Source of the DNA: Okamejei kenojei
Lineage: Eukaryota
NCBI GenBank assembly: GCA_035221665.1
Contig: CM069151.1
Coordinates: 29,450,001-29,514,000 of the forward strand
Length of the DNA stretch: 64,000 nt
Direction of reading: 5' to 3'
Part shown: positions 2,141-62,215 of the stretch, one piece after another
How positions within the stretch are numbered: the stretch's first letter is position 1
Layout of the letters: every line of letters starts with the position of its first letter
Made by a program: the position numbers and the translations under genes
Notes under the pieces: model-generated
The model's input: the letters and a program-made list of their open reading frames with translations, nothing else
The model's database searches: none
Told to the model about the DNA's origin: nothing

Positions 2141-2233
2141 CAGTCTGAAGAAGGCTCTTGACCCAAAACGTCACCCATTCCTCCTCTACAGAGATGCTGC
2201 CTATCCCGCTGAGTTACTCCAGCATTTTGTGTC
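2141..2233 (+). mobile_element. Penelope pLTR-derived module with degenerate hammerhead motif
   Basis: CTGAAGA...ACCCAAAACGTC followed by AGAGATGCTGCC...GCTGAGTTACTCCAGCATTTTGTGTC, the same module found at the end of the Penelope fragment at 54007. Confidence 0.75.
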
Positions 2234-2400
2234 AACCTACAAACCCACACATTTCTGTGACGTGGGATAAATCTTGAACACCTGAGGGTAGCCCTTGCAG
2301 TCTCAGGGAGAACTTGCTAACTCCGATAGCATAGGAGATCAGGACTGAACCCGGATTTCTGGCACTGTGACACATGAGCTCCATTAGCCTCACCACTGCA
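2234..2400 (-). mobile_element. Diverged HE1/V-SINE-like tRNA-derived SINE, partial
   Basis: Reverse complement shows a B-box-like GGGTTCAGTCCTGA and the GTTTGTAGGTT core shared with other copies. Confidence 0.6.
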
Positions 2401-3241
2401 AGAAAAGTCAGGAGTGGCATCGGATCCAGTGCTCTTCATAGGCAGGTGGTAGGGTTCAGATGTCAGATTGGGATTTGGGATGGGAGAGACCATGATCCAA
2501 GTTTGAGGTGAGTCACAGATCAGGAACGTGATTCCTTGCGCTGAGGGGGTGCCCGTGGTACATGAAGGGTTGCTTGATCAGACCCCAGGTGCAGAGAGGT
2601 TGTTGTATCAATGTCTTGCTGGATCCGATGAACCAATCATGCATTTGCTACATCAGCATTTTGAGTGTGGATTGGAATTGACACCATGATATGTGTTACT
2701 GAAATGGAAGATATATCATCCACAGAGTGATTAACTGCTGGAGGGATCCACATTGCATTTCTAAAGGGCCTGGTTTCTTTCCCACTGAGGAAAATCAGTG
2801 GCAACCTTCCAAATTTCTCGGCCCACACTTTCTTCCTTAACCATCTGCATTGGCATTAATCATTTTTTTCCTCCAGTACATTCTATAAATGGACTAAGTA
2901 ATGGCATCCTTGGTGTCAACTTGATTAAAACCCCAGGCCTTGGCTCTTGCAGCAGATGAGTTCATTCCTTCCAAAGTGCCCGCTATGTCTTTATAAAATC
3001 TACTCAATGAATGCCAGCCTATGTTCTTTCACTGCAGGCACATTATAACATTATTATGTTTTGTTCAAACAAGCTATGCTTCTGTATTGCCTCTAAAATT
3101 TGATACATGAACAAGACTGGAAGTAAACAATATTACCCCACATACACCCCCAAGTCGTCGTACTATGTTTAAAGTGATTTTGATGGTACTGCCTCTTGTT
3201 CTAAAGTTAGTGATCGCTCACTGATTTGTTTCATTTCACAG

Positions 3242-3292
3242 GTACATTCAGGGAGCTGCTTCACCCAAGGACATGCTGATTCTTGTAGATGT
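3242..3292 (+). CDS. CACNA2D1: Calcium channel alpha2delta-1 exon, 51 bp: (W)YIQGAASPKDMLILVD(V)
   Basis: Acceptor tttcatttcacag and donor gtaagt. The peptide matches the start of the alpha2delta-1 VWA domain (GAASPKDMLILVDV; alpha2delta-2 has GASSPKDMVIIVDV). Confidence 0.96.
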
Positions 3293-3394
3293 GTAAGTAC
3301 TATACGAGGTACAGCAGAATATTGTAGTTGGTATTTTCCTTGTGGAAGTTAAAATGTCTGACAATTTCCTTGCTCTCTTTTCCATTATGAAAAG

Positions 3395-3494
3395 GAGCGG
3401 CAGTGTCAGCGGACTGACATTGAAACTAATTCGGACGTCGGTTTCCGAAATGCTGGAAACGCTCTCTGATGATGACTATGTGAATGTGGTTTCT
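3395..3494 (+). CDS. CACNA2D1: alpha2delta-1 exon, 100 bp: (V)[33 protein letters not shown]
   Basis: Acceptor aaag and donor gtgagt. Phase is compatible with the previous exon (GT+G = Val) and completes the MIDAS DxSxS motif (DVSGS). Confidence 0.96.
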
Positions 3495-4111
3495 GTGAGT
3501 ATTTACAGCAGTCGGTGGCATTGAATTGCCCGTGTGATAACCTGCGATGGTATTTGTGGCCAGCACATTATTTTACAGGGGCACAGATAATCCTGCCTCA
3601 TAATCCCAGCATGGAAGCCACACGCAAAAGGACAGGAGGCCAAGGCTTGATCTTCACAGTTTAGCTCCACAATTGTTGCTCTAACATAGTTGTCACTGCT
3701 CCCGACCCCAACGACCTAAATCCCTATCAGTACATCTAAAGTCTACAATACAACACAATGCTGATGGCATGAAAATATATGCAGCAGAAGCTCTGGAAAG
3801 AGCATGTTTGAAGGAATAAAACATATTTTATATATAATTCTGCACACAGTTCTAAATGGAGTCAAGCATGTCATTAACTGGTGTCAAACTGTGCTCTGTG
3901 GGAGGTCTTAATTATATCCAATATGTGAATCAGCTCCAGGGATCGCTCAGCAGTTTTGATTAAATAAAACATTTATTTTTGAAGTAAATACATTTGGCAG
4001 GTTGGATTGAATTGTTTTTCTCATGTACATCGAACATTTAAAACTCATTCTAATGCAGCAAAGAGTTACACCGAAAGCCACCTGTTAGAACCCACACAAG
4101 AAACTGGTTGA

Positions 4112-5015
4112 GATTTAGGTTTATTATTGTCAGGTGAACAGAGGTACAGTGGAAACCTTTGTTTTGCATGCGACCCAGTCAGGTCAGATAATGCTATACA
4201 TAAATCCCATTAAGTTAAACTCGTACCGTAGGTAGACAAAGCGGAAGATGCAGAGTGCAGATTATAGTTCTCATTGATGGGCACTATTCTCGGGTGATTG
4301 ATGGTCTGTGTGGACTCAGTGGGCCAAAAGGCCTATTTCTACGCTGTATCTCTAAACTAGACCAAACTAAACAGGCACAGTGAAAAGTTGTTGCGGGCTG
4401 TCCAGTTAGCAGAAAGAAAATACATGAATACAATTGAATTGAATAAATGTTATGAGCCAAGTATGCATACATACAAGGAGTTTGCCTTGGTGCTTTGCTC
4501 ACAAGTAACAACACGATATACAGTAGACAATTAAAAATGAAACATTGTAATTTAAACATGTGAAGAATGAAATAAAATACCAGGGCAAAAGGAGGCTTCA
4601 GACTTTTGGCTGTTGAGTAGAGTTACTGCTCGTGGGAAAAATATGCTTTTATGTCTGGAGTCACCTTCCACAGGGAAGTGATTCAAAGAGTTTGTGGCCA
4701 AGGTAAGAGGGGTCAGAGATGATCTTTCATTGCAGTTGTTGGTGTACAGAGAGTAAAGGAGAGGGGAGAATAGGCAGCCTTGCGGTGCTCCTATGCTGTG
4801 GGTCTGCGGGTCCAAGATGTGCTTTCCCAGCCTCACATGCTGCTTCCTGTCTCTCAGGAAGTTGGTGATCCATTGACAGAGGAGTTTAGGCACAGTCAAC
4901 TGGGAACCATTTACAGTGAAAAGATACATGATAAGGGAATAACGTTTAGTGCAAAGTAAAGCCAGCAAAGTCTGATCAGGTATAGTCAGTCCGAGGGACA
5001 CCAAAGAGGTAGAGG
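4112..5015 (-). mobile_element. Composite of Rex1-like LINE fragments plus a SINE tail
   Basis: ORF 4552-5004 contains CQWITNFL...[17 protein letters not shown] and SIFFPRAVTLLN. Rex1-like 3' UTR pieces at 4112-4285 and 4376-4440. SINE 3' tail on + at about 4290-4372. Confidence 0.75.
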
Positions 5016-59852: not shown

Positions 59853-59957
59853 TTCAATGTATCCCGAGCGAATTGCAACAAGATCATCATGTTATTTACA
59901 GATGGCGGGGAAGAACGAGCCCAAGAAATCTTTACAACATACAATCAGGAGAAAAAA
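59853..59957 (+). CDS. CACNA2D1: alpha2delta-1 exon, 105 bp: [35 protein letters not shown]
   Basis: Acceptor tttctttgtag and donor gtaagt, phase 0/0. Contains the MIDAS Asp in FTDGG. Confidence 0.96.
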
Positions 59958-60853
59958 GTAAGTACTTGTAAAGCTTATTAGTTTTGATACAAAAATACCG
60001 TGACTCCAATAATAGAATTGATTTTGACAGTATTGGCACGGATTGCAAAATTTTCCAAATTAAAGCCAGGTGAGTTTGGTGCAATAAGGAGCACTTTGTA
60101 TTTCAATAGGGGGCATATTTTGTCTTGTTTGCAGAGAATTTAATCCAATTTTTCTTTGGTCCCTATCTCAATCCAAGTATTATTTGGAATAACTTCAAAA
60201 TGTATTTACATTGTAGATTTGTTGTCAGTTTGTTTCCCTAGAGCTGGGCAAATTATTTTAACGGGAAAACTAAAACAATAATTGGAATTCCATTAATTCT
60301 TACCACCCTTTACAACATAATTCTTTGTTATTTTAACACTACTTCTCCTATTCAATTAATATGCTTGTCAGTCAAATAATATTAGTTCAGAAACACTATC
60401 TAACCAAAGCAAGGCATCACCAATGCATTATACATGGATCGAGCAAATTCCACTCGGATGAATTATATTGCCACGAATTTTGTATGTAGATTTGAATAAA
60501 GGGCACTAACTCCCAATAAGAGTGGCTGAGCTTTGAAATCAGATAGCCAGGCAGTGTGTGTGCAAATGCAGGAAAATCTGGAGATATATCCTTCTGATTC
60601 TCATTATTGGTGAACCTAACTTTTAATTTCTGCCTTTCATTTATTTCAATTTCTGTACTCGATTCTTCATAGAATTCGGGGCTCAGTTCCTAGCTAGGTT
60701 GCTTCATGGCTCTTTATCTGTGATGGTTGGTGAGAGGTAGCTGATGTTCCTGGTCACACTGATGTTGCACCAGGTGGGCTAACTTAACACAGCAAGATCC
60801 CGTGTGAAGGCCCACAGAAACATTGCAGTCAAGAGATAGTGTAGTAAACACTG

Positions 60854-60971
60854 AAGATAGGCACAAAATGCTGGAGTAACTCTGCGGGTCAGACAGCATC
60901 TCTGGAGAAAAGGAATAGGTGTGTGTCGGGTTGAGACCCTTCTTCAGATTAACATGATGTAACTAACTAAC
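60854..60971 (-). mobile_element. Penelope-derived module with 12-bp TSD
   Basis: TAGTAAACACTG at 60842-60853 and 60972-60983. Confidence 0.82.
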
Positions 60972-61084
60972 TAGTAAACACTGTGCAGTTTGCTCTTATC
61001 TTACTGCGAGATGAGAGTACTGTTATTCATTTTTGTTTTGCTCTTTTACTTCTTGACATTTTCAAATTTCTTGGCTCATAAACC

Positions 61085-61312
61085 TTGTTTGTTGTGTGCA
61101 ACCACTTAGAGGAAATACTATACATGGTTACAATCAAGCTGTCTACCATGCTCAGATAGAGAATAAAGGGAATAATGATCAGTGCAAGATAAAGTCCAGT
61201 AAAATCCAATTAAAGATAGTCTGAGGGTCTCCTATGAGGTAGATGGCAGCTCAGTGCTGCTCTCGATTTGGTGATGGGGTGGTTCATTTGCCTGATAACA
61301 GCTGGGAAGAAA
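61085..61312 (-). mobile_element. Rex1-like 3' UTR fragment
   Basis: Similar to 19820-20085. Confidence 0.65.
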
Positions 61313-62124
61313 TTAAATAGAAGGTATGCTTTTTCACACTTTTTGTAAACTGGCATCTACAGTTCCTTGTTTCTTTTCATTGGTTCTCCTTGAATCCAGA
61401 AGGCTGATGGGTTGGGGATGGGAAGTGCTTTCTCATGGGGAAATAACTTTATCCACAGACAATAATGCTTTGCCAAAGTTGCATTGGATAAAACAGAGTG
61501 GCTGTTTGCACAGATTACTGACCATCTTTTCTTAACCTTGTCAATGCCAGGACTGACCAGGCCATTTGTGTAAGTGGCTTCCACTTAATTTGCATAGGAA
61601 CAATTAGTAGAAAATGAACTTTGAGCAGGACTGTGAGTAAAGCATCAATATGATTTAGAGTAAAAAACCCTTTGCATTTCAGATTTAGATTTTAGTCAGT
61701 CTGCTTATTGTTTAATTTGAAGCTGTCATCCAATCATTTTAACGATATTTATCCCAGGCGATTCTGATAAGAAAAATAGAAAGATAGAACAAACTGCCTG
61801 GAAAATGAGCAGAGTCATTTAACACAAGCTGCTGTTCTGTCATTATCTTGCTGTTCCCAGATATTGTGTTGTGTTTGCTGTATCTGTGTATCAGTTGGAT
61901 GTATGCCGATTCTAAAAGTGAACATGAACTTGCAAACCTAGCAAACTGAAGACTCTTCCAGGAAACTAAATGTTTCAGAGAATCCTCTGTGTTGTTGCAT
62001 ATATTGGGACATCTGATGACTGGAAGCTTGATGTACATTTAGCCTTTGATACTAAATGTAAATAAATAAAGCCACATGGCCACTTTAATTGTAACCTTTG
62101 AATGAGAGCCAGCAGCATTTTAGT

Positions 62125-62215
62125 AAGATAGACACAAAATGCTGGAGTAATTCAGTGGGACAGGCAGCATCTCTGGATAGAAGGAATAGGTGACATTTTG
62201 GGTCGAGACCCTTCT
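62125..62215 (-). mobile_element. Penelope-derived module
   Basis: AAGATAGACACAAAATGCTGGAGTAA...GGGTCGAGACCCTTCT. Confidence 0.78.

Follow-up and report, generated by a model that had tools for sequence, protein, structure and literature searches.

Short Penelope-derived hammerhead modules in Okamejei kenojei share a 5' end that may mark run-off at a capped transcript

As a kind of sequence, dispersed solo and opposite-strand minimal hammerhead ribozymes (min-HHRs) derived from Penelope-like elements (PLEs) have been known since 2014, when Cervera & de la Pena described motifs that are mostly single and "probably related to truncated PLEs", with opposite-strand pairs 100-700 bp apart, 4,000-9,000 motifs per genome in coelacanth and Xenopus, and further examples in fish Neptune elements (PMC4209133). 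Canonical endonuclease-bearing (EN+) PLEs of the Neptune and Nematis types combine a C-terminal GIY-YIG endonuclease and a CX2-5CxxC linker with 5' truncation, an inverted copy at the 5' junction, a tail at one end, target-site duplications (TSDs) of about 9-10 bp and solo pseudo-long terminal repeats (pLTRs) (PMC8557442, PMC3846280). In Poseidon_Ac of the green anole, two reverse transcriptase (RT) start sites define a tail of 30-40 nt, and both target strands are cut and extended (Frangieh et al. 2024, PMC11167929). Non-LTR retrozymes, found also in a chondrichthyan, are pLTR-derived, non-coding and hammerhead-bearing (Li, Clavereau & Pollet 2026, bioRxiv 10.64898/2026.07.22.740005). The origin of PLE pseudo-LTRs, inverted copies and tails, and the role of the hammerhead, are described as open in this field (PMC11167929, PMC8557442). 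Here we analyse a family of short hammerhead-bearing modules in a 64-kb stretch of the Okamejei kenojei genome (GenBank assembly GCA_035221665.1, contig CM069151.1, positions 29,450,001 to 29,514,000; hereafter the window), which is repeat-rich animal DNA of 42% G+C.

The family resembles each of these systems and also differs from them. With the min-HHRs of 2014 it shares the core boxes, the additional base separating position 9 from 10.1, the G10.1-C11.1 pair, the palindromic 15.2-16.2 and the lack of helix III, whereas its helix I has only 2 bp; cartilaginous fish are absent from the accessible text and searchable table of that study, as is an analysis of 5' breakpoints (PMC4209133). The features listed above for EN+ PLEs recur here. 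However, the solo pLTRs of Adineta are few, lack TSDs and were attributed to recombination (PMC3846280), while short copies in the window outnumber the ORF-bearing locus 19:1, have TSDs and share a 5' end. The two start sites with their tail, and the apparent use of both target strands, parallel Poseidon_Ac. Unlike the window family, which lacks an ATG there, Poseidon_Ac belongs to the Poseidon clade and has an ORF starting at stem II; its accessible description reports no fixed 5' end or cap G (PMC11167929), and the TSDs of the window are not AT-enriched (AT content 0.58, equal to the window value). Retrozymes are defined by units in tandem, at least two (in the sampled chondrichthyan the mean is 363 bp), whereas the window arms are dispersed, inverted and at most 135 nt long. 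In the literature searched, we found neither a description of such modules from cartilaginous fish nor any mention that short PLE copies begin at a fixed 5' end preceded by G, although key papers, supplements and repeat libraries beyond our reach may hold either.

Our main proposal concerns this 5' end. We consider it probable, at roughly 0.6, that RT starts inside the 5' pLTR of the element's own RNA and then runs off at the capped 5' end, leaving short insertions that begin at the transcription start.

In the module numbering, +1 is the A of TC^AGTCTGAAGA, which is minus-strand window position 54090. A profile hidden Markov model (HMM) trained on 12 arms from the window returned 28 matches there, and the reversed-window control only 2, with E values of 0.9-1; a match at 38319-38344 (E 0.2) was discarded as chance, and the tail-only arm at 10712-10740 was included from blastn beside the HMM arms. 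The census comprises 28 arms in 20 loci, which cover 5.4% of the window at one locus per 3.2 kb and are 63-270 bp long, except for a Penelope fragment of 1,086 bp. All 17 modules listed in a preliminary description of this DNA were found again, together with two further copies (15536-15610 and 42017-42121) and the Penelope fragment. Its statement that many copies are head-to-head pairs applies to 7 of the 17, and to 8 of the 20 overall, so that pairs are a minority. TSDs of 9-16 bp, as it had reported, flank 10 of the 20 loci (7 of the 8 pairs and 3 of the 12 single arms). Nine were detected by script and the tenth, of 13 bp at 15087, by eye (10 of 13 positions identical, three CpG changes); in a stricter pass, a score of at least 8 was reached at 8 of 20 loci and in 7 of 380 mismatched-flank controls. 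Decay at CpG sites, also noted earlier, is evident from changes at 36 of 156 CpG positions (30 of them C>T or G>A) compared to 260 of 2,218 other positions, about twice the rate, and the copies said to lack the core correspond to six loci without a CUGA box.

In their fixed 5' end and their short, non-coding, TSD-flanked and dispersed copies, the modules resemble short interspersed elements (SINEs). No tandem arrangement was seen at any of the 20 loci of the window, and the Rfam scan of the window gave no tRNA, 5S or 7SL match on the modules. If the window density is typical, a genome of ~2 Gb would hold several hundred thousand copies; the contig junction counts given below set a floor of thousands of junctions, while summed depth is no copy number. 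A single match in metagenome_contigs (two scans gave 0 and 1) was dismissed as chance, as it lies in GC-rich, coding-looking DNA and the similarity stops there.

The Penelope fragment connects the modules to their parent. At 54007..55092 on the minus strand lies a 5'-truncated copy of a Neptune-type PLE, with an RT thumb, a Cx4Cx2C linker, a GIY-YIG domain and a 3' UTR followed by the module, which forms its 3' end as previously recognised; the ORF, at about 55036-54299, is frameshifted. The module of this copy spans +1..+98 (54090-54007) and carries a deletion of 14-18 bp. An inverted tail arm (55052-55092, +94..+134) sits at its 5' junction and a 12-bp TSD (53992-54003 / 55090-55101) encloses the whole, which is the anatomy of the short loci. 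The coding fragment (54299-55036) is 59-63% identical to predicted proteins of bamboo shark and devil ray and aligns to residues 166-417 of protein P0001 (tblastn E 2e-49). P0001 has RVT_1 and GIY-YIG Pfam matches, both under the curated cut-offs; the Pfam scan of the window fragment itself gave no match. The Cx4Cx2C linker is present in both the window ORF and P0001, and a CX2-5CxxC linker before the endonuclease is found in Neptune and Nematis, not in Penelope or Poseidon (PMC8557442). With respect to the PLE anatomy of a 30-40 nt tail, an inverted 5' copy and a TSD, the loci show two clusters of 3' ends, inverted arms at 8 of 20 and TSDs at 10 of 20. By homology and anatomy, it is almost certain that a Neptune-type PLE (its linker being common to Neptune and Nematis) inserted the modules, which are pLTR sequence, with its RT and GIY-YIG endonuclease; the preliminary description was right about the pLTR origin, the hammerhead-type motif, the inversion and the TSDs. 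A second protein, P0002, a ray entry named "chitinase domain-containing protein 1", consists of PLE RT/linker sequence throughout and is probably a mis-annotated gene model.

In the window, the outermost 5' end lies within -2..+4 at 10 of 18 loci, or 9 of 17 without the three-part locus described below, a concentration reached by none of 200,000 uniform simulations. Ends were assigned by hand, one per locus, with the old copy at 42017 omitted and the long PLE copy outside the range. The pile-up sits 3 nt before the CUGA box, at 54089..54090 (-), the putative transcription start. Its sequence, TCAGTCT, presumably fits the initiator consensus, and a search by eye for a downstream promoter element (DPE)-like motif yielded nothing convincing. 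The earlier suggestion of a histogram of 5' breakpoints thus returned fixed ends, and plain extreme 5' truncation, one of the two origins then offered, is insufficient because the ends are not random. The accompanying rule, by which fixed ends indicate an independent family, does not hold either, since run-off to the 5' end of the autonomous RNA would fix ends too. Copies starting at +1 are spread over three subgroups and do not group as a clade (23 arms; short alignment, weak supports), which suggests a trait of the whole family more than the legacy of a single master copy.

The same end was seen in contigs from public sequencing runs. Two DNA runs contributed some 198,000 and 193,000 contigs to an alignment onto the PLE fragment, and four runs (X4, X10, X15 and X17) are compared here through the best 24 of 4,575 loose-end rows, with consensus letters and with counts for X4 and X10 that are lower bounds. 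Loose ends at +1 were found in at least 1,325 contigs of X4, at least 1,138 of X10 and 167 of X15, and at +2 in at least 1,214, at least 1,136, 187 and, in X17, 70 contigs; each is among the six best-supported ends of the runs for which it is counted here. The tail end (55092), in the top six of all four runs, is about as frequent, with at least 1,203 (X4), at least 974 (X10), 200 (X15) and 115 (X17) contigs. The loose flanks at +1/+2 have a median length of 132-242 nt and are AT-rich and unshared (agreement 0.31-0.35); they are therefore separate insertion junctions. In all seven +1/+2 rows listed, the first loose letter is a G in the sense of the element; for the +1 ends, where the reference has C at -1, this is a transversion and hence not simple decay. 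None of the top ends listed coincides with the ribozyme's cut site (+31/+32). Tens of contigs show +1 joined to inverted arms, and tens show it joined head to tail with the tail end. The breakpoint count leaves out the loose ends at 54026 and 54029, an effect of the reference copy's deletion, and those at 54092/54093, where variant upstream sequence is mixed in.

The 3' ends of the arms form two clusters, about +89..+102 and +122..+135, some 35 nt apart, and this interval is the PLE tail. The short 3' end is not visible in the contig comparison, as the reference copy is deleted there. As read directly from the window, all seven pairs with two true 3' ends consist of one short and one long arm (p=0.008 if independent); the eighth pair (43081) is a fold-back. 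The use of both RT start sites by each of the 7 pairs, one per arm, is compatible with priming of both strands by a dimer. Six long arms of three subgroups retain an 8-bp helix pairing +51..58 with +109..116, without two-sided changes; it encloses the short RT start site (for example within 26975-27066) and is a candidate RT-binding structure.

According to our proposal, a transcript beginning at the start within the pLTR would carry two sets of RT start sites, the first 100-135 nt in from the 5' end and the second at the far end. RT would start in pLTR RNA at one of two sites, ~+98 or ~+134. From the near copy, it would run off after 100-135 nt at the capped end of a Pol II transcript, often copying the cap as an extra G, to give a short product, while starts in the far copy (the 3' pLTR) would yield ordinary long or randomly truncated insertions. 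Variable upstream 5' ends (about -16, -21, -30 and -960) are present at 4 of 19 loci. Most copies would stop at +1/+2 because they were templated by the transcript's 5'-terminal pLTR. With both target strands primed, each site would supply one arm, and microhomology or filler would link the two cDNAs head to head; the pattern of ends is plain in the sequence, and the enzymology of paired priming is what we infer by analogy with the anole element. The hammerhead motif would be carried along uncut and decay neutrally.

Several published observations accord with these steps. The transcription start and an internal promoter lie within the pLTR in Drosophila Penelope and Chlamys-3 (PMC2377424, PMC8557442), an Inr-like TCACT is reported in an Adineta pLTR (PMC3846280), and capped full-length L1 insertions carry an extra G as their mark (PMC11702581). 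Insertion of Poseidon_Ac is independent of hammerhead cleavage and uncut RNA is its substrate in vitro (PMC11167929); the absence of the cut site from the top ends listed is in line with uncut RNA as the substrate. If the proposal is true, the sharp 5' end with its extra G would place the start of transcription 3 nt ahead of the ribozyme core, and the many solo minimal hammerheads of genomes would be explained as short products of run-off, neither truncated at random nor selected as ribozymes. The module family offers a large natural read-out of PLE insertion.

A number of observations weigh against run-off at a cap. In the window, 5' ends lie elsewhere at 8 of 18 loci, only three informative +1 copies have the G (10316, 15221 and 22170) while 5216 and 60948 do not, +1/+2 copies bear fillers of 4-23 nt, and two loci (9245 and 43081) are joined exactly at a TCAG-N-CTGA palindrome. 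The contig evidence for +1 consists of the best 24 of 4,575 rows, so that the neighbouring background, the G share and the cut-site count fall outside it; the runs are contigs rather than RNA ends, and two marked "RNA?" look like DNA. The ORF-bearing PLE known here is a 5'-truncated copy. In D. virilis, the transcription start is more than 100 nt upstream of the hammerhead and the 3' end of an intron abuts helix I (PMC4209133, PMC2377424), and the CAG/T at +2/+3, with CTRAY and a pyrimidine tract upstream, resembles that intron end.

This resemblance suggests an intron 3' splice site as in Drosophila Penelope, whereby the short copies would derive from spliced RNA or from an RT stop on a lariat intermediate. 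CTRAY followed by CAG directly before the core is seen in the four copies with upstream sequence, the same layout being described for D. virilis (PMC4209133). A single contig of X17 lacks 54088-54136 (-), which misses by one base a 48-nt GT..AG interval ending at the hammerhead; the skip may be a variant copy or an intron trace, and X17 as RNA is a guess. However, the loose ends lack a shared upstream exon (agreement ~0.32), and the peaks listed, +1 and +2, include neither +3 nor the branch position at -5. The branch-to-AG distance here is 5-8 nt, which is unusually short and counts against an intron, an origin that we regard as improbable. Somewhat less improbable, yet still unlikely, is a hot spot of 5' truncation unrelated to the transcription start, arising where RT stalls at the hammerhead's 5' edge, or where TCAG-N-CTGA serves as the joint between the two cDNAs or for an antisense self-primed template. 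The two loci joined inside the palindrome (9245 and 43081) and the tens of contigs with +1 joined to inverted arms fit such a hot spot, and palindromes at inverted PLE junctions have been published together with an antisense self-priming model (PMC3846280). Nevertheless, +1/+2 ends mostly enter unique flank (more than 1,100 contigs) rather than a second arm (tens), the G is left unexplained, and the monomer hammerhead fold is unstable (z -0.03), which gives little reason to expect a strong stall. A different hammerhead register, with cleavage at UC^AGU (-1/+1), was also considered as a source of the fixed end: position -3 is never G in upstream-bearing copies, and the register was rejected because helix III cannot form and no G would result.

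Two further explanations concern how the copies multiply. Tandem units that self-cleave, circularise and re-insert, as in non-LTR retrozymes, find some support in the tail end joined head to tail with +1 in 18-30 contigs per joint (X4, X10) and in the reported descent of animal retrozymes from pLTRs (bioRxiv 10.64898/2026.07.22.740005). This option, the other of those first offered, is highly improbable given that none of the 20 loci is tandem, paired cores lie on opposite strands, the core is intact in 1 of 28 arms, and copies end at +1 and the tail instead of the cut site. A SINE-like family that propagates itself is compatible with the run-off that we favour and goes one step further: a solo +1..+135 copy would keep an internal promoter and both RT start sites, be transcribed at its site of insertion and be copied in trans by the PLE protein, so that most short copies come from short copies. 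The 19 short loci beside one ORF-bearing locus in the window agree with it, as does the summed contig depth of the core bin, 7 to more than 100 times that of the ORF bins (depth is no copy number). In Drosophila Penelope, the first ~46 nt after the transcription start are enough for expression (PMC2377424), pLTRs alone moved a host gene in trans in Adineta (PMC3846280), and internal RT start requires no fixed RNA 3' end (PMC11167929). On the other hand, there is no clade of +1 copies apart from the upstream-extended and ORF-bearing ones in the alignment described above, and Rfam gives no tRNA, 5S or 7SL match, so we regard self-propagation as rather unlikely. It would follow, with the same low probability, that the 135-nt module, bounded by the +1 Pol II start and the second RT start site, is in itself a full non-autonomous SINE, promoter-bearing and PLE-driven, with ~10^5 copies in elasmobranch genomes. 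Such a SINE would need no Pol III head, poly(A) tail or ribozyme, and its junctions would record capped-RNA run-off and two-site priming.

The hammerhead motif consists of CUGAAGA, one extra base, a G-C pair closing a 4-bp helix II, GAAA, a palindromic CG and the GUC site. This state is the majority in the arm alignment, with helix II paired in 85% of cells. The boxes CUGAAGA, GAAA and CGUC are all intact in only 1 of the 28 arms (18401; 11 were scored as core-spanning), the complete set lying at 18404-18431. The minimum-energy monomer fold of this copy is not a hammerhead. At E<=1, the Rfam scan of the window returned four matches with no hammerhead among them, and two of the four are artefacts of the inverted pair at 18361-18478. 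Lack of covariation in stem II had been named beforehand as grounds for abandoning the idea of hammerhead-associated modules. None was found, with two-sided changes in 0 of 4 pairs across 15 arms, and whole-structure covariation measures were matched by 55-146 of 500 shuffles. This null result has low power because the copies decay after insertion; absent covariation is expected of such copies and is uninformative on ribozyme activity. As for the very large genomic hammerhead census that had been anticipated, nearly all cores here are dead, thousands of minimal hammerheads per vertebrate genome are already published (PMC4209133), and as a census the window adds little.

The youngest-looking locus is the head-to-head pair at 18316..18492, with a long-tail arm (-, +38 to ~+128) and a short-end arm (+, +1 to ~+96), the latter carrying the intact core, within a perfect 15-bp TSD (18290-18304 / 18498-18512). 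The pair at 5097..5312 joins a long-tail arm (-, +31..+135) to a short-end arm (+, +2..+98; TSD 13 bp), that at 10634..10740 a short-end arm (-, +25..+94) to a tail-only arm (+, +102..+130; TSD 14 bp), and that at 26797..27066 a short-end arm (-, +16..+98) to a long arm (+, about -30..+135; TSD 16 bp). In the pair of a diverged subgroup at 9245..9445, a short arm (-) and a long-tail arm (+) meet at the palindrome (-2), and no TSD was found. At 43081..43219, a long-tail arm (-, -2 to ~+128; TSD 9 bp) ends in a 19-nt fold-back at the same palindrome. The locus at 22170..22296 has three parts, a +1..+14 piece, an inverted tail arm (to +133) and a sense arm (+19..+92), with a TSD of 12 bp. The placement of the +1..+14 piece before a normal head-to-head pair within one TSD (insertion 22154-22309) suggests a template jump.

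Among the solo copies, 15087..15221 (-) is a full module (+1..+135) with G directly upstream of +1 and the 13-bp TSD mentioned above, and 10228..10316 (-; +1..+96/98) also has this G, with a TSD of 9 bp. Further minus-strand modules lie at 60850..60948 (+3 to ~+100; TSD 12 bp and 23-nt filler), 21609..21709 (+2 to ~+102; no TSD found), 55783..55868 (+4..+89, diverged subgroup), 62125..62215 (+8..+98) and 9096..9179 (+13..+96; a possible 7-bp TSD not above chance). On the plus strand, the module at 2126..2233 reaches upstream of +1 (about -16 to +92), as possibly does the decayed one at 13233..13327 (about -21 or -3, to +83), and 44037..44099 (+36..+98) has no core. Of the two copies added to the earlier list, 15536..15610 (-) is coreless and 42017..42121 (+) is old, with ~70% identity.

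Other repeats surround the modules, and an assembly gap of 151 N occupies 34088-34238. Remains of a Gypsy-type LTR retrotransposon at 37529-40256 (-) include a 568-aa ORF with RT, RNase H and integrase matches and an upstream gag/protease-like ORF. RT and endonuclease fragments of long interspersed elements (LINEs), which resemble the CR1/L2/Rex type, are located at 28060-29867, 32630-33550, 35644-37116, 1515-1976 and 25987-26565, with an RVT_1 match at 29019-29867. A Tc1-like transposase fragment at 50797-51550 (+) has a weak HTH_Tnp_Tc3_2 match. Just downstream of the module at 13233, at about 13385-13590 (+), is a SINE with a tRNA-like head, which presumably resembles the elasmobranch HE1/V-SINE.

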